The translations under genes were made by a program, and so were the position numbers. The notes beneath the pieces are model-generated. The model ran no database searches. It was given only the letters and a program-made list of their open reading frames with translations, and had not been told where the DNA came from. Shown here piece by piece: positions 2-10,257 of a stretch of 10,257 nucleotides of DNA. The stretch is from a virus, in the UHGV virus genome UHGV-0185894. One strand, 5' to 3'. Positions within the stretch are counted from its first letter, which is position 1, and every line of letters begins with the position of its first letter.

Positions 2-214
2 CGCGGCGGGATAGAACGAGCGCACGAGCTGGAACACGCCGACACCGAGGCCGGTGGCATCAATACCGATGTATTCGACCCCTAGGGCCCCACCGCCGGG
101 GAGAAAGCCAGCCACGCCGACCTCGCCTGGGCGACCATGCACGCCCTGTTAAATGAGCCACTCACCGCCGGTATCAGCACCCCGCTGACATCCACCATTC
201 TGGAGTTTTACTGA
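2..214 (+). CDS. P: 3' end of the late gene upstream of portal (position of P2 gpP, terminase large/ATPase subunit); partial at window edge; contains an in-frame TAG at 83..85
   Basis: The frame ending in TGA at 212..214 overlaps the Q start ATG (214..216) by 1 nt, as in the P2 P-Q operon. The translation in this frame is protein-like (…AWATMHALLNEPLTAGISTPLTSTILEFY*) but is interrupted by TAG at 83..85. Identity as terminase is inferred from position only. Confidence 0.45.
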
Positions 215-1248
215 TGAGCAAGAAAGAAGGGAAAACACCGCAGCCAGCGGCAAAAACAATCACCGCCAGCGCCCCGAAAATGGAAGCATTCACCTTTGGC
301 GAGCCGGTGCCGGTACTCGACCGCCGTGACATTCTGGATTACGTCGAGTGCATCAGTAACGGCAGATGGTATGAGCCGCCGGTCAGCTTTACCGGTCTGG
401 CAAAAAGCCTGCGTGCTGCCGTGCATCACAGCTCACCGATTTACGTCAAACGCAATATTCTGGCCTCAACATTTATCCCGCATCCGTGGCTTTCCCAGCA
501 GGATTTCAGCCGCTTTGTGCTGGATTTTCTGGTGTTCGGTAATGCGTTTCTGGAAAAGCGTTACAGCACCACCGGTAAGGTCATCAGACTGGAAACCTCA
601 CCGGCAAAATATACCCGCCGTGGTGTGGAAGAGGATGTTTACTGGTGGGTGCCGTCCTTCAACGAGCCGACACCTTTCACGCCCGGTTCCGTGTTTCACC
701 TGCTGGAGCCGGATATTAATCAGGAGCTGTACGGCCTGCCGGAATACCTCAGCGCCCTTAACTCTGCCTGGCTGAATGAGTCGGCCACGCTGTTCCGCCG
801 CAAGTATTACGAAAACGGCGCACATGCCGGATACATCATGTACGTCACCGATGCCGTGCAGGATCGCAACGATATCGAAATGCTTCGCGAAAACATGGTG
901 AAGTCGAAAGGCCGCAACAACTTTAAAAATCTGTTTCTCTATGCCCCACAAGGGAAAGCCGACGGCATTAAAATTATCCCGCTCAGTGAAGTGGCGACGA
1001 AGGACGATTTTTTTAATATCAAAAAAGCCAGTGCCGCAGACCTGCTGGACGCCCACCGCATCCCCTTTCAGTTGATGGGCGGCAAGCCGGAGAACGTCGG
1101 GTCGCTGGGTGATATTGAGAAAGTGGCAAAGGTCTTTGTCCGCAATGAGCTTATCCCGTTACAGGACAGGATCCGAGAGATAAACGGCTGGCTCGGTCAG
1201 GAGGTCATCCGCTTTAAAAACTACTCACTGGACACTGACAACGACTGA
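214..1248 (+). CDS. Q: Phage portal (capsid portal) protein, P2 gpQ-like, 344 aa
   Basis: The supplied 344-aa translation matches the P2 Q portal protein in length and sequence as I recall it. GGAG lies 8 nt upstream of the ATG, and the gene is translationally coupled to the upstream ORF. Confidence 0.9.
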   Translation: MSKKEGKTPQPAAKTITASAPKMEAFTFGEPVPVLDRRDILDYVECISNGRWYEPPVSFTGLAKSLRAAVHHSSPIYVKRNILASTFIPHPWLSQQDFSRFVLDFLVFGNAFLEKRYSTTGKVIRLETSPAKYTRRGVEEDVYWWVPSFNEPTPFTPGSVFHLLEPDINQELYGLPEYLSALNSAWLNESATLFRRKYYENGAHAGYIMYVTDAVQDRNDIEMLRENMVKSKGRNNFKNLFLYAPQGKADGIKIIPLSEVATKDDFFNIKKASAADLLDAHRIPFQLMGGKPENVGSLGDIEKVAKVFVRNELIPLQDRIREINGWLGQEVIRFKNYSLDTDND

Positions 1249-1252
1249 ACAT

Positions 1253-1276
1253 CGCCGCCTGCGGGCGGCTTTTTTA
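1253..1276 (+). terminator. Rho-independent terminator after Q (end of the P-Q late operon)
   Basis: GCCGCC (1254..1259), loop TGCG, GGCGGC (1264..1269) form a perfect 6-bp GC stem, followed directly by TTTTTT (1270..1275), 5 nt after the Q stop codon. Confidence 0.65.
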
Positions 1277-1417
1277 CATCCCGTCATCACGCCCTCACAC
1301 GCTCACCACCGCACAAAACACCCCTTAGACACACCAACGCCCCGACGCACAATCTAAACGCCATCACGACGCGCTCAGACGCTGAAAAAATAAAATCAGC
1401 ACCACCGCCAGCGCGCA

Positions 1418-1436
1418 GTGCTTTCCCCGCCTCGCC
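1418..1436 (-). other. cos: cos site core (P2-type 19-nt cohesive end sequence)
   Basis: Plus strand GTGCTTTCCCCGCCTCGCC; its reverse complement GGCGAGGCGGGGAAAGCAC is the P2 cohesive-end sequence. It lies ~170 bp beyond the Q stop, as expected for P2. Confidence 0.8.
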
Positions 1437-1583
1437 CGCCCGCTTCATGCAGGGCTTTAAATGCAGTGCAGCAGTAATGGTTAGAATGCGCCAGCACTGA
1501 TGTTAGATACCAGAACTGGCATTTAAAAATGAATGCAAATAAATGCACCAAACTAATTACTTACTGACAAAAAATAAGTAAAA

Positions 1584-2468
1584 TCAGGCGCAAGTTGGCA
1601 TTGAGACCCCTTTCAGGGTATTAGGAATAATTATTTCAGGAGAAAAAATCATCACTTCCTCTCCAGATTTTTTGAGATGCGCTGTATATTGCAATGAATA
1701 CTCAACTTGCGGAAATTCATTATAAATATCTTTAATTTCCTTAGCGTTATCATAAGAAACAAGCCAATTTGGGAAATTAATTTCTGTGAGTTTCTTCATA
1801 ACCAATACATGGTCATCATGCTCATAAAAATTCCTGTAAAGCCCTTGCCCTTTAATATAGTAAGGAGGATCCAAATACAAAAGAATTTTATTTTTATCCA
1901 CCTTTCCCATATTATCCATAAAATTCAAAGCATCAAGAAAATCCAAAGCATCCAGATTAGTTACTACTATTCTTTGATTATAATTTGCTATCTTCTCAAT
2001 TCTTGAAATTAAATCCGCCCTGTTAAAGCGAACATCCATTTTCCATTTTCCATTTTGTGATTTCCCGCCTATAACCCCCGCCTTGAGAATACCTGAACGA
2101 TTTGTTCTATTTAAGAAAAACGCAGCAAAGCCAACCTCAAGCTTAGTAAACTCAGAAGGATTCGAAATAACATAGCGATGAAAAGACCATTCATCCATAT
2201 CTATCTTTGCTCGGCTAATAAGTCGGCAAAGCTCATCAGTATCACTAACAACAGATGACCAAAAAGAATAAACAGCAAAATCTGCATCATTTATATAGAC
2301 TTTACGGACATACTCTTCCAATAATAATTCTAAAGCCACCCCTGCACCACCAGCGTAAGGTTCTGCATATGCTCCATCATTCAACGAGTTTTTTTCAATA
2401 ACATCTTTTAAAAAGTAAGATAACTTACCTTTCCCGCCGGGGTATCTTAATGGAGTATAAAATTTCAT
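1584..2468 (-). CDS. Dam-family (D12 class, alpha-type) N6-adenine DNA methyltransferase, 294 aa
   Basis: N-terminal RYPGGKGKL (compare Dam LKWAGGK), SAM-binding motif I AEPYAGGAGV (FxGxG), and catalytic motif IV DPPY at aa 200..203 (nt 1871..1860, checked against the DNA). The motif order I-then-IV is that of Dam-like alpha-class enzymes. RBS GAGAGGG lies upstream of the ATG. Confidence 0.85.
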   Translation of the reverse strand: MKFYTPLRYPGGKGKLSYFLKDVIEKNSLNDGAYAEPYAGGAGVALELLLEEYVRKVYINDADFAVYSFWSSVVSDTDELCRLISRAKIDMDEWSFHRYVISNPSEFTKLEVGFAAFFLNRTNRSGILKAGVIGGKSQNGKWKMDVRFNRADLISRIEKIANYNQRIVVTNLDALDFLDALNFMDNMGKVDKNKILLYLDPPYYIKGQGLYRNFYEHDDHVLVMKKLTEINFPNWLVSYDNAKEIKDIYNEFPQVEYSLQYTAHLKKSGEEVMIFSPEIIIPNTLKGVSMPTCA

Positions 2469-2537
2469 AAATCCCTCTCATTCCTGATTTTGTAGTTTAT
2501 CAGTTTCTGGACATCCATGTCCAGATGTAGACAAATC

Positions 2538-4043
2538 TCACTCACTCCAAATAAGGCTTAATAACAACTCAAAGTTATCCCACTCAGTGTTGACAGCCTC
2601 TTTTGAGGGAATTAAGTGTGGGTTATGTACATACTGCTGCAATGAACCATCATGTTTAGTTATTTGGCTCGAGAAAGTTATTACAGCCGTACATTGACTC
2701 CCCGTCATCTTTTTATTTTCCCGAAGGAAATTAGCACACATTTTAACCTTATCATGAAGCCCTGGAGTTCTATGCGGTTCCTTAAATTGTAACTTGTTTT
2801 CTTCAACAAAAGTGCTTACAGAGAGATCTATAAATATTCTCAACAATATTGAGATAGCATTAGGGGTGTTATCAAATGTCAGATGCGACTTAAGCTCATT
2901 AAATATTCTAGAGCATTTCTTATGCCCTCTAAAATTAAATTTCACATAAGATGGCACCAACACATTACGATCTACTTTAGGAGGAGTTTTTCCCTTGTTT
3001 TTATTCTGTTCCGTACCCGAAACTTTAGATTTACTCTCTTCTGTGCCTACATGTCTAGAATAATCATCTTCCTGTTTATCCACACCTGTATTCTTTAAGG
3101 CATCACCTTCTGAAAGACCTACTTTCTTTACACTCACAGATGCATCATTTTTGTCAATAGAATCATGTTTTTTCTCTGTAAGAAAAGATTTAGGCTCCAG
3201 TAAACTCCACGGCTTATCTAAAAGAGAGTCTGAAGGTTTTATTTTTTGTTCAATAATAAATGTAACCCTGTCATCTTGGCTACGAATCCTATTAACAGTA
3301 AAACAAGCCTTACCTTTATCATCCTCTTCAATCATTACATCTAAAATATTTTTTAATTGTGCACAAAAACGTTCATAAGGCTGATATGAGTATAGAACTC
3401 CATTAATGCTTTTTAAATTAAAATAATCCCTCACCTTTAAATCACCAAAAAGACGCGTGATGTTTGTGATTTTTAAAAGTCTTTTTTTAGCAATTATCTC
3501 TTTATATAAATCAGTATTGAACTCTATAAATGTAAGTATTTGATTACCAAATGACTGCTTACCCATCCTAGCCAGATGTCGTGCTTTTTCTGTTGCAGTC
3601 CATTCAACTCTTCCAACTCCAGCATTTTGACCAGTATGCTTTAAATTGACCCAATGCTCATATTCATCATCGTCAAAAAGAACGCAGTTATCTATAACAT
3701 TAATATCTTTAAGCTGAGTAATCTTAAGTTTTTCAAAAGCTTTCCGTGCTTTTTCTGTTGGTGCAAGTCTAGGAGAGTGTAAAAGTTTAAGGGCTGTAAC
3801 TCGACGATTACCTTCAGCAACGACGAAAAAGCCAGATTCCTCTTCACTAGGATAAACTAATATGTTTTCAGACGGATCTAAACCTTTCGAAGCAATATCT
3901 TTAGCCAAGCGATAAATGCGGTCGTACTGCAAGTCAAGCATCTTGGCAATAGCATCACGCTGATTTTCTGCTGACGTCGGGAAACGAGGGTTATCAACAT
4001 CCAAAAGTAACTTATTGATATTCATTGATTTTAGTTGATTCAT
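2538..4043 (-). CDS. ParB/Srx-like N-terminal domain protein with low-complexity linker and uncharacterised C-terminal domain (candidate nuclease/NTP-binding effector), ~501 aa; longest ORF extends to 4112 (524 aa)
   Basis: The N-terminal region INKLLLDVDNPRF…GLDPSENILVYPSEEESGFFVVAEGNRRVTALKLL has the ParB N-terminal pattern (…NPR… then a G-x-R-R motif like ParB GERRxRA). NPR (3992..3984) and GNRR (3812..3801) were checked against the DNA. AGAGGA (4056..4051) sits 7 nt upstream of the ATG at 4043, so 4043 or 4049 is a more likely start than 4112. The C-terminal ~140 aa has no motif I recognise. Confidence 0.6.
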   Translation of the reverse strand: MNQLKSMNINKLLLDVDNPRFPTSAENQRDAIAKMLDLQYDRIYRLAKDIASKGLDPSENILVYPSEEESGFFVVAEGNRRVTALKLLHSPRLAPTEKARKAFEKLKITQLKDINVIDNCVLFDDDEYEHWVNLKHTGQNAGVGRVEWTATEKARHLARMGKQSFGNQILTFIEFNTDLYKEIIAKKRLLKITNITRLFGDLKVRDYFNLKSINGVLYSYQPYERFCAQLKNILDVMIEEDDKGKACFTVNRIRSQDDRVTFIIEQKIKPSDSLLDKPWSLLEPKSFLTEKKHDSIDKNDASVSVKKVGLSEGDALKNTGVDKQEDDYSRHVGTEESKSKVSGTEQNKNKGKTPPKVDRNVLVPSYVKFNFRGHKKCSRIFNELKSHLTFDNTPNAISILLRIFIDLSVSTFVEENKLQFKEPHRTPGLHDKVKMCANFLRENKKMTGSQCTAVITFSSQITKHDGSLQQYVHNPHLIPSKEAVNTEWDNFELLLSLIWSE

Positions 4044-4399
4044 CAACATATCCTCTGTTGAATCTTTATGATAAAAATTAATTATTTTTATCATAAATGA
4101 TAGCGTAAACATAGTATTATGAACGACATCAGCCCTGAAGCTTCAAAACTATCATTTACGTTTGCGAGGCACCATCTATCACATTGATTTATAATAAGTA
4201 TCTTTATCTTCACTGCATTGCTCTCAAAAAATCACATAGATGGAAATTCCCCGTTGACACACTCCCAAGTGATGCAGATACATTTCAAGTGCTTCATACA
4301 CATGATAACGGCTATCCCCCTAAATTCTGTGCGTTTCTTTTCCCTCCAGCACAAGGTTGAAATATCTTGCGTGCAGCTTTACTTTGTGAATCTTTGTCA

Positions 4400-6685
4400 T
4401 TATATCCGCGCCATTACTGTTGAGAATCCCGGCCACTCATCAGCGACCGGATACGTGAATTTTTTCCCGTCATAATTTACGGTCGCGCCACGCGCCAGCG
4501 CCTCAAGCTCCCATCGCTGCGGCCTGATACCGTTCTGAGCAAGGTCAACGCGGATACGGGTAATTTGCATTCTTTCCGACCGGGTCAGTCTGGCCGATGG
4601 TGCAATTTCATGTGGTTTTAACGGGCTTCCGTTTCTCTGCTGACGATTTGGTGTTCTCAGCCCGTATTTTAATGCGCCCCTGAGCGCCCTCACGACCTCC
4701 GGGTCATTCCATTCGATAACACCGTCATCAACCAGATTAAGCACTGCTGCGGCGTGCTCAGAAGGCGTGGGAGCCGGTAACGAAGTATTACCGCCGGTGA
4801 GCTTTCCACAGTTATTGACAGGACTCCGAGGCGCGGCGATGCCGCTTTTTAAAGTCAGAGGCTCAACGACCGGAACTTTCGGCACAATGCGCCAGTCCGT
4901 CGTTCTGGTGATATGAATATGACGCGCGCCGAGATGCGGCGCGTAAATGCCGACCACTCTCTCGACTTCTTCCTCGTACTCGTTAACTTCATCCGACGGA
5001 CTACGGGCGACCCTGACAGTCTGACAATCGCGCGGGACATTTGCCCCACCCTGCGCGCTGATATACAACGCAAAATCACCACTGTCTGCGGCGGCGCGTG
5101 CAGCCTCGACGCGCTCGTCAAACTCATCAGCAATGCTGACGCCGCGAGGCAATTTGCGTAGTTCACGGTAAGCCCCCATTGTCGGCAAACCAACCGTTTT
5201 AAATTGTGGGATGCGCCACGTTGACGCCCATGCGGTAACAGCCGCAGCAGTGTCTTTCAGCGGTCTGCCGGTATCGTTATCGAGCTGACCATCCAGTGCA
5301 TAGCCATCGATGTTTTTTGAGATGTATTTCGCGATATACCCCGCAGCACCGCCCTGGTTAAGGTGTTTTGCCTGAAAACGGTTTCGCGCGGCTCCTCTTT
5401 CGTCGCCATCCTCTTTGAGCGCATAGCGACGCATGATTTCGATAATCTGGTTACGCTGGCGTGGATTACAAAAAAGCATCATATGCCAGTGCGGCGTTCC
5501 GTCGTGGTGTGGCTCGACGACACGCAAACCGTAGACCTGTAAATCATTATCTTTGAATGCCGTGCGCATCAGGCTCCAGATATGGCAGAGATAACGCTGC
5601 GCATCCTTTGGATTAAATGCCTCATCGTTCCAGCCGTGATTTAGCTGGACGGTTTTACTTTCGCCTTTTCCGACCTGACGTGTCGGGTGATACTTTGAAG
5701 GCGCGGTAAGCGTGATAAACATCCCCACATCACCCTCTGCGGCGGCGTAACGCTCAATACCGGCAATGGTGTTCATCAGCTCCATCCGGCGAATTTCAGG
5801 ATTAGAAATACTGCCCATCACCTTACTGATAAGGTCGATGCGCTCGCCGGTTTCCCTGTTTTCAAGGTCACACGATTTAAGAAATTCCAGATTTGCCTGG
5901 CGGCGTGCACGCACATCACGAATGGCATGTTTACTGGCATAAGGAGAACGGTCTTTATTCACCTCCCCGACAGCAATCAGTAACGCCTCATGCCAGCGCA
6001 TACGCTGGCCTTTGAGCTGATGAGTCCACCACTCATCGTTAAACAGACGGGCAATGGCAGAATATGCCTGCCTCGTGGTCATCTGTCCTTTACGGTATTT
6101 TTTCCAGTAAAGCGGGGAAATATTGAAAGCACGTGCAGCGCCAGCAACATGACCATAGAGGTGAGCCTGCGCCTCATCCGTAAACAGCGATTCTTTTTCG
6201 CCATGTGCATCCACCCAGGCATCGCTGAGTTCCTCATACATCATGAAAAGCTGCGATGAGATACGGGCGGCAAACTTTTTCAGCTCCTTGTCATTCATTC
6301 CCGGCAGGCGCGCATAGTGGTCACGCTCTGCCAGAAACAGCAACGACGCGTCGGTGTTCATTTCATGGCGCTGATTCACACGCTCAATGCGCGGCCATAA
6401 ACGACGCTGAAAAGTGGATGTGAGGAAATAAAACCCGTGCACCGGGCTTTTATTGCGCCGGATGTAGTCATAGCGTGAAGTAAACAGCGAGCGCAAAAAG
6501 TAAGGCAGGCGGTTAATCGTGGATAAAACACCTTGCATCTGACGCATCTCGTCACGTGTAAGGGGTCTTTCGCGCCCGACGGCCTCGCGTGGCGCGTTCC
6601 ATGCATAAGCACCGGTAAACATCTTACCGGTGCCTGCGGCAAATGCTGACGGAGGGACAAAACGCCCGGAGGCTTTAACGGCCAT
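4400..6685 (-). CDS. A: Replication initiation protein / rolling-circle endonuclease, P2 gpA-like, 761 aa
   Basis: The long ORF matches P2 A in size and position (downstream of B and the small ORFs). Start set at Met15 of the listed 775-aa ORF (MAVKASGRF…, ATG at 6685..6683 checked in the DNA), which gives 761 aa, the length I recall for P2 A. Confidence 0.88.
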   Translation of the reverse strand: MAVKASGRFVPPSAFAAGTGKMFTGAYAWNAPREAVGRERPLTRDEMRQMQGVLSTINRLPYFLRSLFTSRYDYIRRNKSPVHGFYFLTSTFQRRLWPRIERVNQRHEMNTDASLLFLAERDHYARLPGMNDKELKKFAARISSQLFMMYEELSDAWVDAHGEKESLFTDEAQAHLYGHVAGAARAFNISPLYWKKYRKGQMTTRQAYSAIARLFNDEWWTHQLKGQRMRWHEALLIAVGEVNKDRSPYASKHAIRDVRARRQANLEFLKSCDLENRETGERIDLISKVMGSISNPEIRRMELMNTIAGIERYAAAEGDVGMFITLTAPSKYHPTRQVGKGESKTVQLNHGWNDEAFNPKDAQRYLCHIWSLMRTAFKDNDLQVYGLRVVEPHHDGTPHWHMMLFCNPRQRNQIIEIMRRYALKEDGDERGAARNRFQAKHLNQGGAAGYIAKYISKNIDGYALDGQLDNDTGRPLKDTAAAVTAWASTWRIPQFKTVGLPTMGAYRELRKLPRGVSIADEFDERVEAARAAADSGDFALYISAQGGANVPRDCQTVRVARSPSDEVNEYEEEVERVVGIYAPHLGARHIHITRTTDWRIVPKVPVVEPLTLKSGIAAPRSPVNNCGKLTGGNTSLPAPTPSEHAAAVLNLVDDGVIEWNDPEVVRALRGALKYGLRTPNRQQRNGSPLKPHEIAPSARLTRSERMQITRIRVDLAQNGIRPQRWELEALARGATVNYDGKKFTYPVADEWPGFSTVMARI

Positions 6686-6950
6686 ATGAGCCAAAAGCCT
6701 CTGAACAACGCTTGCTGAGTTGCTCAACCTGCACGTTTAAATCAGCAAAAGACTTTGCGCTTCCGGTCAGAATATCGTGATGCATCAGGCCTGAAACGAG
6801 CTGGCTTAATTTCGGGTAATAACCAACCACCGCCAGCCATTCCTGACCGGCGTTTTTACCGCTTTCCGCTCTCTTTTTCTCGTGGAGAATAAACTGAAAG
6901 CTGTCACTGGTAACGACATAACGTTCGCCAATTTCAATACGAATACTCAT
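6675..6950 (-). CDS. Small early-operon protein at the P2 orf83 position, 91 aa, function unknown
   Basis: Intact ORF in the same orientation as A, overlapping the A start by 11 nt and the preceding ORF by 4 nt (operon-style coupling). Assigned by position only. Confidence 0.65.
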   Translation of the reverse strand: MSIRIEIGERYVVTSDSFQFILHEKKRAESGKNAGQEWLAVVGYYPKLSQLVSGLMHHDILTGSAKSFADLNVQVEQLSKRCSEAFGSYGR

Positions 6951-7171
6951 GCCGTTCTCCGGTAATGTTTGTTTTTTGCTTCAAAGACTGACTGACAGGA
7001 AACACAACGCGTGGCTGACGGGTAAGCCGCACGACGGGCAGCAGGTATTGGCGCGTCACACTCTTCGCAAACCAGCGCAGAAGCACCGCAATGTTTTACC
7101 CTTGCCGCGTTAATCTGGCGCTCCAGTAATTCAGCCTGTTGTTCCTGAATAAAATCTACGTTGTCCGGCAT
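6947..7171 (-). CDS. TraR/DksA-type C4 zinc-finger protein at the P2 orf82 position, 74 aa
   Basis: CEEC…17 aa…CVSC four-cysteine arrangement typical of TraR/DksA C4 zinc fingers; coupled to flanking ORFs (1-nt overlap with the next ORF). Confidence 0.75.
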   Translation of the reverse strand: MPDNVDFIQEQQAELLERQINAARVKHCGASALVCEECDAPIPAARRAAYPSATRCVSCQSVFEAKNKHYRRTA

Positions 7172-7476
7172 TACCAGTTCCTTTTGTCGTTCAGTTTTTT
7201 AAATTCATCAGCGCAATAGCTGGCGATTTCTGTCGTTAATTTCGTCAGTTCATCCACGGAGGAAATTTGCTTGTGAAATACAGCGCGTTTAACAAGTAAA
7301 TTGACCACATCAGACAGGAGGTTTAATTCACTCTGATAAATCGCGATAACAGATTCAGTTATTTCGCGTTTTTCTTTATCAAGACCAAGTTGAATAAGAG
7401 ACAAATCGCCATTTTTCATAACGGCGATTTTTAAGGCGTTATTCAGTAATACAACTGAACGAGAACAGAACATCAA
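7171..7476 (-). CDS. Small early-operon protein at the P2 orf81 position, 101 aa, function unknown
   Basis: Intact ORF tightly packed between neighbours (4-nt overlap with the upstream ORF) in the conserved orientation. Confidence 0.65.
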
Positions 7477-7697
7477 AGCACCTCCCCGCGAGACAATCCG
7501 ATATTGTGAAATTTTTCCGACTCCTGACTGAGCAGCTCGACTATCTCCACGCGGGATAACTCCGCCTTTGTGATGTGGCGAATCATGGCATCAAGATGAG
7601 AAGAAAAGCGCGTCGCAGCGTCGGCCTGTGCTTCGGTTCTGGCCTGTTGCAGCAGTAATGCGTATATACCGCACTGATTTTCAGAAACTGTATGCAT
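7473..7697 (-). CDS. Small early-operon protein at the P2 orf80 position, ~74 aa, function unknown
   Basis: ORF listed as 7473..7730; a start at Met12 (ATG 7697..7695) is preferred because GGAG (7707..7704) lies ~6 nt upstream. Confidence 0.6.
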
Positions 7698-7760
7698 AAC
7701 TTTCTCCAGGCAAAAAGAAGCCCCGCACAATTAAGTGCGTTAAAAACTCTGGTTAATTAC

Positions 7761-8261
7761 TTAATGCAGATATTGCTCCGGTTTTACCGACGTCAGAATT
7801 GTCGGTGCATACTCAAACAGACTGAATAATTCACGTAATGCACGGAATAAAGCATCACGCCAGTAACATGACTCTTCATTAATTCGCCAGTATGGCTGGT
7901 TGAATTCTTTTTCAGTCAATCCGGCATGCATAAATAAAGTACGACGCTGACTGACTGTTAAAAAACTAATATATGCATACTCACTTGCGCCAACCTGACG
8001 GCGTTTTGAGAATGCACCACGCAATTCATCAATTGCACATACCAGTCGTTCACGTTCGACGTCGTTCATTTCTTCAAAACACATCGTTGCGTGACGCTGT
8101 TTTAACTGAGCATGGAAGCAAACCGTTAACCGTTCGCGCTCCATCATCTGATTATAATAATCACATGTATCCTGCCAGCGAGGAACGGCAAGATGCTTAC
8201 CAATTATCCGGCGCATAGCTGCTGGCTGTTTTTCAACGAGATTGAGCGTCATCACTGTCAT
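7761..8261 (-). CDS. B: Replication protein B, P2 gpB-like (helicase-loader function reported for P2 B), ~166 aa
   Basis: Position between the orf78-like ORF and the orf80-83 cluster, with size as in P2. Start preferred at Met3 (MTVMTLN…, ATG 8261..8259) because GGAGGG (8277..8272) is 7 nt upstream of it but only 1 nt from Met1. Confidence 0.8.
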   Translation of the reverse strand: MTVMTLNLVEKQPAAMRRIIGKHLAVPRWQDTCDYYNQMMERERLTVCFHAQLKQRHATMCFEEMNDVERERLVCAIDELRGAFSKRRQVGASEYAYISFLTVSQRRTLFMHAGLTEKEFNQPYWRINEESCYWRDALFRALRELFSLFEYAPTILTSVKPEQYLH

Positions 8262-8452
8262 TTCCATACCCTCCGGCTTTTCAGAAAGGTCAGAGCCTTT
8301 TTTAACGGACTCTGTTTTTTGGTGCGGATAATGATTCCCTTACGCCCCTTACCGTGGGTGATGGTGAAGTCAATCGCCCTGGGGCTTTCGTTACGCAGTA
8401 ACTGAGCAATACAACGAGGCTCATTCATACGGTTCTCCTTAACGTGGTTCAC
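8258..8452 (-). CDS. Small basic protein at the P2 orf78 position, 64 aa
   Basis: Intact ORF between cox and B, overlapping cox by 14 nt and B by 4 nt (using the 8261 start). Lys/Arg-rich. Assigned by position. Confidence 0.55.
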   Translation of the reverse strand: MNHVKENRMNEPRCIAQLLRNESPRAIDFTITHGKGRKGIIIRTKKQSPLKKALTFLKSRRVWK

Positions 8453-8714
8453 CGAGACCTAACCACATCAACCAGCCGTCACGAATCTCTTTAGGGCGGC
8501 TTTCATAAGCCAGTTTTAGTCCGTTATTCCATGCCGGAAGGTATACCCAATATTCACCTGCACGACCTGAAGCTGATTGTGGATCGGTCATATCAATTAC
8601 AGGCAGCTTTCCTTTATCGATCATCCGACGAACCGCTCCTGTCGATTTTCCTATTAGTTTTGCGAACTCCTGATAAGGAATCGCATCAGTCATGAGTGTT
8701 ACTTGCTTGCTCAT
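8439..8714 (-). CDS. cox: Cox protein (excisionase / Pc repressor / directionality factor), P2-like, 91 aa
   Basis: 91-aa protein MSKQVTLMTDAIPYQEFAKLIGKSTGAVRRMIDKGKLPV… matches P2 Cox as I recall it; divergent from C across the switch region. Confidence 0.9.
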   Translation of the reverse strand: MSKQVTLMTDAIPYQEFAKLIGKSTGAVRRMIDKGKLPVIDMTDPQSASGRAGEYWVYLPAWNNGLKLAYESRPKEIRDGWLMWLGLGEPR

Positions 8715-9243: not shown

Positions 9244-10257
9244 ATGGCAATCAAAAAACTCGATGATGGTCGATATGAAGTGGACATCCGCCCTACTGGA
9301 CGTAATGGAAAACGCATCCGTAGGAAGTTTGATAAGAAAAGCGAAGCTGTCGCTTTCGAGAAATACACGTTGTACAACCACCACAATAAAGAATGGCTAT
9401 CAAAACCAACAGACAAGCGACGTCTGTCGGAGCTGACACAGATCTGGTGGGATTTAAAGGGTAAACACGAAGAGCATGGGAAATCTAATCTTGGAAAAAT
9501 TGAAATCTTCACAAAAATAACGAATGACCCATGCGCATTTCAAATTACGAAATCGCTTATCAGCCAGTACTGCGCCACCCGAAGAAGTCAGGGTATTAAA
9601 CCTTCGAGTATCAATCGTGATTTAACATGTATTAGCGGCATGTTTACAGCCCTGATTGAAGCGGAGTTATTCTTTGGTGAGCACCCTATCAGAGGGACAA
9701 AAAGGCTTAAGGAGGAAAAACCAGAAACAGGCTATCTAACACAGGAAGAAATTGCCTTACTGCTTGCAGCACTTGACGGCGACAATAAAAAGATTGCGAT
9801 TCTTTGCCTGAGTACAGGAGCACGTTGGGGAGAAGCAGCTCGTTTGAAAGCAGAAAATATCATCCATAACCGCGTCACGTTTGTTAAAACGAAAACAAAC
9901 AAACCACGCACCGTCCCGATCTCAGAGGCTGTTGCCAAAATGATCGCGGATAACAAACGAGGTTTTTTATTCCCTGATGCTGATTACCCTCGCTTCAGAC
10001 GAACAATGAAAGCAATAAAACCGGATTTGCCAATGGGGCAAGCCACACATGCACTAAGGCACAGCTTTGCCACTCATTTCATGATTAATGGAGGAAGTAT
10101 TATCACGCTACAACGGATACTAGGTCACACGCGGATTGAGCAAACTATGGTTTACGCTCATTTTGCGCCAGAGTACCTTCAGGACGCCATTTCTCTTAAT
10201 CCGCTAAGAGGTGGTACTGAGGCCGAGAGTGTCCACACAGTGTCCACAGTAGAGTAA
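9244..10257 (+). CDS. int: Tyrosine integrase, P2 Int-like, 337 aa
   Basis: Size and position downstream of C; C-terminal catalytic region contains HxLRHSFATH and the Y of MVYAHF (R-H-R-Y tyrosine recombinase signature); GGAGGG RBS at 9231..9236; stop codon TAA is the last 3 nt of the window. Confidence 0.9.
   Translation: MAIKKLDDGRYEVDIRPTGRNGKRIRRKFDKKSEAVAFEKYTLYNHHNKEWLSKPTDKRRLSELTQIWWDLKGKHEEHGKSNLGKIEIFTKITNDPCAFQITKSLISQYCATRRSQGIKPSSINRDLTCISGMFTALIEAELFFGEHPIRGTKRLKEEKPETGYLTQEEIALLLAALDGDNKKIAILCLSTGARWGEAARLKAENIIHNRVTFVKTKTNKPRTVPISEAVAKMIADNKRGFLFPDADYPRFRRTMKAIKPDLPMGQATHALRHSFATHFMINGGSIITLQRILGHTRIEQTMVYAHFAPEYLQDAISLNPLRGGTEAESVHTVSTVE

Follow-up and report, generated by a model that had tools for sequence, protein, structure and literature searches.

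Functional selection in E. coli ECOR7 led to the discovery of PD-lambda-5, a two-gene defence system (Vassallo et al. 2022, Nat Microbiol, PMC9519451). Its genes, RCQ13837.1 and RCQ13838.1, span 2,461 bp (Supplementary Table 2, PMC9519451) and, when expressed from their native promoter, protect E. coli K-12 against nearly all of a ten-phage panel, with the strongest protection against the T-even phages, whose cytosines are all glucosyl-hydroxymethylated (PMC9519451). The ECOR7 genes were cloned into a promoterless vector together with only ∼272 bp of the DNA preceding the A gene, and this native promoter sufficed for activity (PMC9519451). Escape plaques are recorded as "No" for the original clone, lambda-51, which gave no high-frequency escape (Table S1, PMC9519451), and the assays required an MG1655 host deleted for the mrr region (PMC9519451). 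Vassallo et al. called PD-lambda-5 a compacted "RM+Abi" system and gave the A protein a weak HHpred label, "ParB/HEPN" (PMC9519451). Anantharaman et al. proposed PrrC-like roles for HEPN domains linked to restriction−modification (R-M) systems and listed ParB-HEPN fusions as well as operons that combine HEPN, a ParB nuclease, and a DNA methylase. We found no mechanistic study of PD-lambda-5 in the literature searched. The second body of prior knowledge concerns a genomic niche: the gpA−gpQ interval is a documented defence hotspot of P2-like phages (Rousset et al. 2022; PMC9519451), and it carries lysogenic-conversion defence genes (PMC9519451; Rousset et al. 2022). In P2, the genes in question are tin and old, which share with the other hotspot cargo the role of excluding other phages (Rousset et al. 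2022; Odegrip et al. 2006).

We analysed a stretch of 10,257 nt from the virus genome UHGV-0185894, referred to below as the window, with attention to the open reading frame at 1584−2468. Our analysis indicates that this gene very probably encodes the B subunit of PD-lambda-5 and that it is lysogenic-conversion cargo in the gpA−cos−gpQ hotspot of a P2-like prophage of E. coli. In the window, which is part of such a prophage, gpQ (+), cos, a low-GC island, gpA (−), the early genes, and the integrase (+) follow one another in this order (Table 1). The P2 cos 19-mer, GGCGAGGCGGGGAAAGCAC, occurs once in the window, at 1418−1436 with 0 mismatches, and the cosR annotation of P2 aligns onto the same region. 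P2 homology ends at window position 4319, 81 nt inside orf91, and picks up again at 1465; the 2,853 bp (∼2.85 kb) island between these points has 31−38% GC as opposed to 50−58% in the flanks. A preliminary description of this DNA had placed the methyltransferase as the last gene before cos, in the position of tin and old. Both statements are borne out, the first by the exact P2 cos at 1418−1436 and the second by the gap in P2 homology at 1466−4318 and its low GC. The cargo boundaries of P2 tin/old and of the window cassette coincide, lying within orf91 and just before cos, and the locus is the one used by the other hotspot cargo; however, the tin and old proteins are unrelated to the PD-lambda-5 proteins, and transcription of old-tin starts at a promoter adjacent to cos and runs towards gpA, whereas the window cassette is co-directional with gpA.

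Table 1. Features of the window with their coordinates, strand, and the basis of each assignment
Feature	Coordinates	Strand	Basis
gpQ portal protein, conserved right flank of the hotspot	214..1248	+	Pfam, annotation
cos, 19-nt cohesive end with the P2 sequence	1418..1436	-	exact match
Low-GC cargo island replacing P2 positions 30400-33545 (rest of orf91, tin, old)	1466..4318	.	GC, P2 alignment
PD-lambda-5 B, alpha-class D12-family DNA methyltransferase, 294 aa	1584..2468	-	Pfam, PADLOC, ECOR7 identity, fold model
A-B intergenic spacer, 69 nt	2469..2537	-	repeat and RNA-structure predictions
PD-lambda-5 A, 501-aa effector candidate	2538..4043	-	PADLOC, homologues, structure model
Upstream non-coding part of the cargo	4044..4318	-	promoter-like site, inverted repeat
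P2 orf91 (DUF3850) remnant: 26 codons then stop; right-hand recombination boundary of the cargo	4319..4400	-	PGAP pseudogene, P2 alignment
gpA replication endonuclease, conserved left flank of the hotspot	4400..6727	-	PF05840 E=2e-124
Integrase	9244..10257	+	

The limits of the methyltransferase gene are exact, with ATG at 2468 and TGA at 1586−1584 on the − strand enclosing 294 codons for amino acids, and a ribosome-binding site, GAGAGGGA, lies 4 nt 5′ of the start. The encoded N-terminus, MKFYTPLRYPGGK, is conserved among homologues. The motifs PLRYPGGK (residues 6−13, with GGK at 11−13), EPYAGGAG (36−43), and YLDPPYY (198−204, with DPPY at 200−203) are arranged in the order of the alpha class, namely, motif X, motif I, target-recognition region, and motif IV. 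When 20 homologues of 56−87% identity are aligned, the residues of these three motifs are invariant or nearly so, and the SAM-binding glycine loop EPYAGGAG (motif I) and DPPY (motif IV) are invariant. The GGK and DPPY motifs and their alpha-class order, which had been noticed in the preliminary description, are therefore confirmed in the translation and the homologues, and the check proposed there for catalytic residues lost on alignment reveals no such loss. The glycine loop that it gave as FxGxG is present as well, but the spelling is not correct, the actual residues being Y-A-G-G-A-G. Pfam PF02086 (D12-class) matches with 61.7 bits (E=1.1e-16; gathering cutoff 22 bits), and residues 9−256 cover profile positions 1−246 of 253. 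In a Foldseek search, an AlphaFold model of the protein (pLDDT 76.6, pTM 0.79) matched M.CbeI, E. coli Dam, DpnM, and T4 Dam with E-values from 5e-10 to 2e-6. Judged by its motifs and its modelled fold, the open reading frame is an intact alpha-class D12-fold DNA methyltransferase, and the resemblance is far beyond chance.

The assignment to PD-lambda-5 comes from both genes of the cassette. With PADLOC, the methyltransferase is identified as PD-Lambda-5_B (E=1.3e-121; residues 1−286 on model positions 1−280 of 291), and the protein encoded upstream is identified as PD-Lambda-5_A (E=7.4e-168; residues 24−523 on model positions 1−465 of 466); the two genes are on the same strand and are separated by 69 nt. 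The methyltransferase is identical to ECOR7 RCQ13838.1 at 290 of 294 positions, the substitutions being V57I, A180V, E251G, and V288G, and the A protein is identical at 499 of 501 positions to the neighbour of the ECOR7 B allele, with D272E and V308A as the differences. All six substitutions fall outside the conserved motifs. Contigs that contain the exact ECOR7 B allele have the layout of the window (cox through gpA, A of 501 aa, B of 294 aa, and portal), and across 8.4 kb, one of these contigs matches the window with 99.2% identity. The span that is equivalent to the published one, 1584−4043, measures 2,460 bp. The window shares with the ECOR7 system the two-gene architecture, the protein lengths (501 + 294 aa), the gene spacing and orientation, and the location between gpA and cos/portal. 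It thus contains an allele of a defence system that is already published and experimentally validated, in its known genomic niche. In annotation, the "DNA adenine methylase" and the adjoining "hypothetical protein" are to be taken jointly as a PD-lambda-5 cassette and not as Dam or an orphan phage methylase. We note that the methyltransferase also matches the generic Type II methyltransferase model of PADLOC (E=3e-103). A literature search found no paper citing WP_000675356.

The partner protein required a correction of its start. The mechanically defined open reading frame reaches 4112, but the homologues, PGAP, and the PADLOC model all place the start at M24 (4043). A structure model of the A protein, built from 37 homologues (pLDDT 79), begins with a ParB/Srx domain, continues with a helical/winged-helix middle, and ends in a HEPN fold; residues 1−290 are well folded, residues 291−353 form a disordered charged linker, and the C-terminal domain is helical. 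In the model, the N-terminal ParB/sulfiredoxin fold carries a GxxR(R) nucleotide-binding box, and the corresponding residues, E77-G-N-R-R81, are invariant among A homologues. The C-terminal part is modelled as a four-helix up-and-down HEPN fold with R402, H473, and N474 as invariant residues. The canonical HEPN motif Rx4-6H is absent from this domain: QQYV precedes H473, there is no Arg within 4−6 residues, and R402 is on another helix. A Pfam scan of the A protein gave no match, and scans of the 37 homologues gave no match to a ParBc or HEPN family at E≤0.1, so the ParB and HEPN calls derive from the structure model. As such, the model agrees with the label given by Vassallo et al. and strengthens it. 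Folds of the classical restriction nucleases (PD-(D/E)xK, HNH, GIY-YIG, and PLD) were not found in the A protein.

We next consider how far the two genes travel together. A scan of one genome per species yielded 80 loci with methyltransferase orthologues of 45−59% identity, distributed over Proteobacteria, Bacteroidota, Firmicutes, Actinobacteria, Saccharibacteria, and others. Three of these loci came without upstream sequence and were left out; in 61 of the 77 usable ones, the methyltransferase gene is immediately preceded by a co-oriented gene for an A homologue, in many cases 0−10 nt away, and most of these 61 are not P2-like. In ∼11 of the remaining loci, the upstream gene encodes an ABC-ATPase/Toprim protein of 530−610 aa, of the OLD/GajA/AriA kind. 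The pairing with A, when taken with the pairing with OLD-like proteins, marks the methyltransferase as a modification module that accompanies a partner which targets nucleic acids. The pairing of A with the methyltransferase is conserved across phyla. The same cassette is found in the P2 hotspot of Salmonella and Serratia, in a degraded P2-like element of Pantoea, and in a Mu-like prophage of Shewanella; the same pair is also present on an A. baumannii chromosome (methyltransferase 57% identical), with no recognisable phage genes within 3−4 kb. The full-length cassette occurs in 22 of 5,426 complete E. coli genomes and in 0 of 50,697 phage records, and the methyltransferase is widespread in Salmonella assemblies. 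One of the options in the preliminary description, that the enzyme supplies the modification in an R-M-like pair formed with the upstream gene, is supported by these results together with the PADLOC assignment of A and B and the ∼99% identity to ECOR7.

The sequences upstream of the cassette bear on a different option, namely, that the enzyme is an orphan made early by the phage, from the last gene of its early operon, to shield phage DNA from host restriction. There is precedent for anti-restriction roles among phage-borne D12 methyltransferases, T4 Dam being an example. In the window, the gene is co-directional with gpA, and intrinsic terminators were predicted neither between gpA and the cassette nor after the methyltransferase gene, so read-through from gpA during lytic growth is possible. 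However, the 272 bp upstream in the ECOR7 clone correspond to 4044−4315 of the window, a region that contains a promoter-like site, TTTACG-17-AATAAT, at 4109..4081 and a perfect 14-nt inverted repeat at 4065−4078 / 4084−4097 (z=-4.2). Because the clone is active with only this much upstream DNA, promoter-like site included, we think it more likely that the cassette is expressed autonomously in the lysogen, like other cargo of the hotspot. The earlier expectation that the gene, as the final one of the early transcript, is expressed early to protect phage DNA is not supported by the native-promoter clone or by the defence-hotspot context. The anti-restriction option is further weakened by the tight linkage to PD-lambda-5 A, here and in the 61 paired loci, by the ability of the plasmid-borne pair to defend cells that are not lysogens under its own promoter, by its presence as low-GC cargo in a hotspot dedicated to prophage-encoded defence, and by the chromosomal pair of A. 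baumannii described above. We rejected orphan status on account of the conserved upstream partner, and we regard this option as very unlikely. The same evidence weighs on the last option of the preliminary description, an epigenetic regulator of lysogen expression in which a solitary methyltransferase acts like Dam or CcrM. Orphan D12 enzymes can regulate genes, a generic precedent; obligate pairing, a defence phenotype, and the hotspot context argue against such a role here, and the patchy occurrence of the cassette in E. coli fits accessory defence cargo. We therefore consider regulation of the lysogen extremely improbable.

With a PD-lambda-5 cassette as the preferred reading, a working mechanism can be set beside classical Type II R-M. 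In both cases, a methyltransferase adjoins a presumed nucleic-acid-targeting partner. The PD-lambda-5 partner differs in that it combines ParB/Srx with HEPN and has no PD-(D/E)xK, HNH, GIY-YIG, or PLD nuclease, and the published PD-lambda-5 phenotype differs in that epigenetic escape plaques are missing and T-even phages are the ones most strongly inhibited. In a lysogen, the methyltransferase would methylate a short sequence motif on the chromosome and the prophage. This mark would keep the ParB/Srx-HEPN protein off self DNA, whereas unmarked DNA of an incoming phage would be engaged, with the ParB-like nucleotide- and DNA-binding module serving as the sensor and the HEPN and/or the ParB-like domain serving as the nuclease. 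The outcome would be restriction, possibly with an abortive component. Progeny of the prophage would be marked incidentally, and guarding phage DNA would not be the main role of the gene.

The preferred reading has to reckon with an A protein that is without a classical nuclease fold or Rx4-6H. Two published observations also suit simple self-marking restriction poorly: no escape plaques are recorded, and T-even phages are the best restrained. Because of these two, an abortive or toxin−antitoxin-like variant has to be weighed, in which the continuous activity of the methyltransferase, or the protein itself, silences the ParB-HEPN protein; loss of methylation or of synthesis caused by infection, or a flood of unmethylated replicating DNA, would then free a HEPN RNase that stops the cell. 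Such logic would suit the original clone, with no escape plaques on record, and a broad protection that is strongest on phages whose DNA resists most restriction enzymes. It would also suit the modelled HEPN fold at the C-terminus of A, the "RM+Abi" label (PMC9519451), and the proposals of Anantharaman et al. on PrrC-like HEPN roles and on HEPN/ParB nuclease/methylase operons. The HEPN domain, however, is without the canonical catalytic Rx4-6H, and the methyltransferase family also pairs with OLD-like ATPase-Toprim nucleases, which makes it look like an interchangeable module for DNA-targeting effectors. On balance, we consider the abortive variant unlikely. For the preferred reading, the points of entry to the mechanism are the ParB/KorB-like module and the non-canonical HEPN domain of the partner, the OLD-like ATPase-Toprim nucleases that are the other partners of the methyltransferase family, and a candidate recognition site, TGGCCA (m4C), to which we now turn; the interest that remains lies in this mechanism and in the possible N4-cytosine nature of an "adenine methylase".

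The enzyme was called a Dam-family adenine methyltransferase in the preliminary description, and only a part of that name stands. The D12 fold is confirmed, but membership in the Dam family is not: the score against TIGR00571 (dam) is 47.3 bits, while the curated cutoff is 114.85, and in a search of PDB sequences the sole match was 7M6B (M.CbeI; E=3e-12 with the single protein and E=4e-21 with a family profile). Dam, T4 Dam, and DpnM went undetected by the family profile among PDB sequences at E≤0.01, and on these two grounds Dam orthology was rejected. In comparison with these three GATC N6-adenine enzymes, the fold, the motif order, and PF02086 are shared (Foldseek E=4e-9 to 2e-6, TM-score ∼0.55−0.65), with 13−18% identity. 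The host used in the defence assays points the same way. GATC methylation is native to K-12, and a deletion of the mrr region is unneeded for GATC methylation in a Dam+ host, so the mark is probably not GATC; the requirement for the mrr-deleted host further implies in vivo activity of the methyltransferase, which leaves a mark that K-12 itself does not have. The top Foldseek match, M.CbeI (∼23% identity), has DPPY as motif IV and the motif order of the alpha class in common with the window enzyme. M.CbeI (DmtB, PDB 7M6B) is annotated as a D12 adenine methylase and contains DPPY, yet it makes N4-methylcytosine at GG(m4C)C; its partner is a HaeIII-like restriction enzyme, whereas the window enzyme is paired with a ParB-HEPN protein. 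Judged from these sequence relationships, the modified base may be N4-cytosine rather than N6-adenine, and the motif is probably not GATC. An m4C in a G-C context would be a target of the methylation-dependent restriction of K-12 (McrBC and Mrr), so an m4C mark would fit the need for an mrr-deleted host.

The DNA upstream of the methyltransferase gene suggests which motif this might be. Among 79 loci, TGGCCA is the most enriched palindromic hexamer upstream of the methyltransferase: 19 of the 79 have it in the 120 nt that precede the N-terminal motif, as compared with ∼3 expected, and the maximum in 2,000 random draws was 11 loci. Its occurrences are either non-coding or within the upstream gene, where two different reading frames are represented, and the loci that bear it diverge from one another as much as from the E. 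coli enzyme. In the window, there are 0 TGGCCA sites against ∼2.5 expected, an avoidance that is not significant. Three published lines connect this hexamer with m4C. The A. baumannii A118 enzyme MT2 (H0N27_12600), an alpha-class enzyme annotated as an "adenine methylase", was shown by heterologous expression and SMRT sequencing to make m4C at TGG(m4C)CA and is described as having no obvious restriction partner; E1N14_009720 of S. algae, with the same class and annotation, also makes m4C at TGGCCA; and REBASE holds a large family of orphan alpha-class enzymes with predicted TGGCCA recognition. Orthology of MT2 and of E1N14_009720 to the window enzyme was not established: cluster and contig look-ups found an A. 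baumannii PD-lambda-5 pair but did not show strain A118, and no S. algae protein was among the best 120 matches of a search seeded with the Shewanella homologue. Two occurrences of TGGCCA (m6A) were judged unrelated: the one in Fukatsuia is attributed to a fused Type IIG enzyme, and the one in Photorhabdus has no gene assigned to it in the gene table.

In the window, the spacer between A and B contains a perfect 9+9 inverted repeat, TCTGGACAT-gg-ATGTCCAGA, at 2506−2525. The core of this palindrome, ACATGGATGT, does not vary among the cassettes of Salmonella, Pantoea, and Serratia, and the changes in its arms preserve pairing. We tentatively suggest, as a possibility to which we would assign somewhat less than even chances, that the PD-lambda-5 B family consists of alpha-class N4-cytosine enzymes for TGG(m4C)CA or a related GGCC-containing palindrome; that the conserved palindrome shortly before the methyltransferase gene (TGGCCA in the 19 loci and, at the equivalent place here, the inverted repeat) is the recognition or autoregulatory site of the system itself; and that PD-lambda-5 is a non-canonical restriction system whose HEPN-fused ParB-CTPase-like clamp or sensor recognises DNA without the N4-methyl mark. 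If the N4-methyl reading is true, it could explain the targeting of the C5-modified DNA of T-even phages. The spacer repeat also overlaps a promoter-like TGGACA-18-TAAACT, and in the predicted RNA structure, the region just 3′ of the A stop codon pairs with the ribosome-binding site of the methyltransferase (z=-2.8).

Part of the family of methyltransferase genes to which the second gene of the PD-lambda-5 cassette (B) belongs has a candidate recognition or regulatory site on the 5' side of the gene. Among palindromic hexamers upstream of the methyltransferase gene in loci L002-L081, which come from a scan of one genome per species, the most enriched is TGGCCA, found in 19 of 79 loci against approximately 3 expected. 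The hexamer precedes the N-terminal motif of the methyltransferase by 40-90 nt and is situated either in a non-coding spacer or in the 3' end of the upstream gene, where it occurs in two different reading frames, and the loci that contain it are highly divergent from one another. In independent papers, alpha-class enzymes that carry the annotation "adenine methylases" are reported to make m4C at TGGCCA. TGGCCA may be a recognition or autoregulatory site of the family.

The window counterpart of this position is nucleotides 2506-2525 in the A-B spacer, a perfect inverted repeat that overlaps a promoter-like site. Its ACATGGATGT core is invariant in the cassettes of Salmonella, Pantoea, and Serratia, where substitutions in the arms preserve base pairing (G-U pairs included, if the element is read as RNA). 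The spacer is predicted to fold as RNA (z = -2.8), with the ribosome-binding site of the methyltransferase gene paired to the region 3' of the A stop codon; because of this predicted pairing, the fold suggests translational coupling or attenuation of the methyltransferase gene. A second perfect inverted repeat, with a 5-nt loop (RNA fold z = -4.2), is situated directly upstream of the A-gene ribosome-binding site, where it overlaps the predicted -10 element. Of its two arms, the cassettes of Salmonella and Pantoea conserve only the left one, and the repeat could serve as an operator or form a hairpin in the 5' UTR.

Features of the cassette, its relatives, and its settings
Feature	Locus or record	Position	Remark
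9+9 inverted repeat TCTGGACAT-gg-ATGTCCAGA	Window	2506-2525	A-B spacer
14-nt inverted repeat TTTATGATAAAAAT / ATTTTTATCATAAA	Window	4065-4078 / 4084-4097	Upstream of A gene
Relative of ParB-like part, Wphi gp98	AY135739.1	31504-32451	Cos-proximal hotspot equivalent
Relative of ParB-like part, phage L-413C	AY251033.1	30058-30513	Cos-proximal hotspot equivalent
ABC-ATPase/Toprim gene	L011, L015, L020, L023, L031, L042, L053, L057, L061, L071, L072		Directly upstream of methyltransferase
HicAB pair, Serratia	L093	6226-6821	Inserted between cassette and portal gene
Cassette, Shewanella	L101	2450-4876	After mor in Mu-like prophage
Cassette, A. baumannii	L097	1448-3870	Chromosomal; flanked by aconitase and DUF4126 genes

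The partner of the methyltransferase is not constant. At about 11 loci, in Neisseria, Haemophilus, Acinetobacter, Nitrosospira, and others, the ParB-HEPN protein is replaced by an ABC-ATPase/Toprim protein of 530-610 aa (Pfam AAA_15/AAA_21; PADLOC ATPase-Toprim, GajA, AriA) that resembles OLD, GajA, and AriA, and this methyltransferase plus OLD-like pair looks like an undescribed combination. In the A protein, the ParB-like half is joined to the HEPN domain by a 63-residue segment (aa 291-353, window 2985-3173) that is rich in Lys, Glu, Ser, and Asp, predicted to be disordered (pLDDT below 50), and variable in sequence and length among homologues. The ParB-like part shares 26-30% identity with the N-terminal 160-308 aa encoded by genes that other P2-like phages have in this same cos-proximal hotspot; our methyltransferase search of the phage collection gave no match in the Wphi or L-413C records.

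A comparison of window 1584-4400 with P2 record positions 30684-33426 shows that the cassette and P2 old-tin have opposite orientations: the cassette is co-directional with gpA, whereas old-tin is transcribed towards gpA from a promoter beside cos; cargo of this hotspot is thus inserted in either orientation. The cassette also moves among element types, with the settings in Serratia, Shewanella, and A. baumannii listed in the table. At the start of the window, nucleotides 1-79 match 8547-8625 of L082, a related prophage contig, in the orientation opposite to that of the remaining match (window 101-8468). This stretch repeats, inverted, part of the terminase gene situated immediately outside the window, and it probably arose as an artefact of fold-back or assembly at a contig end.
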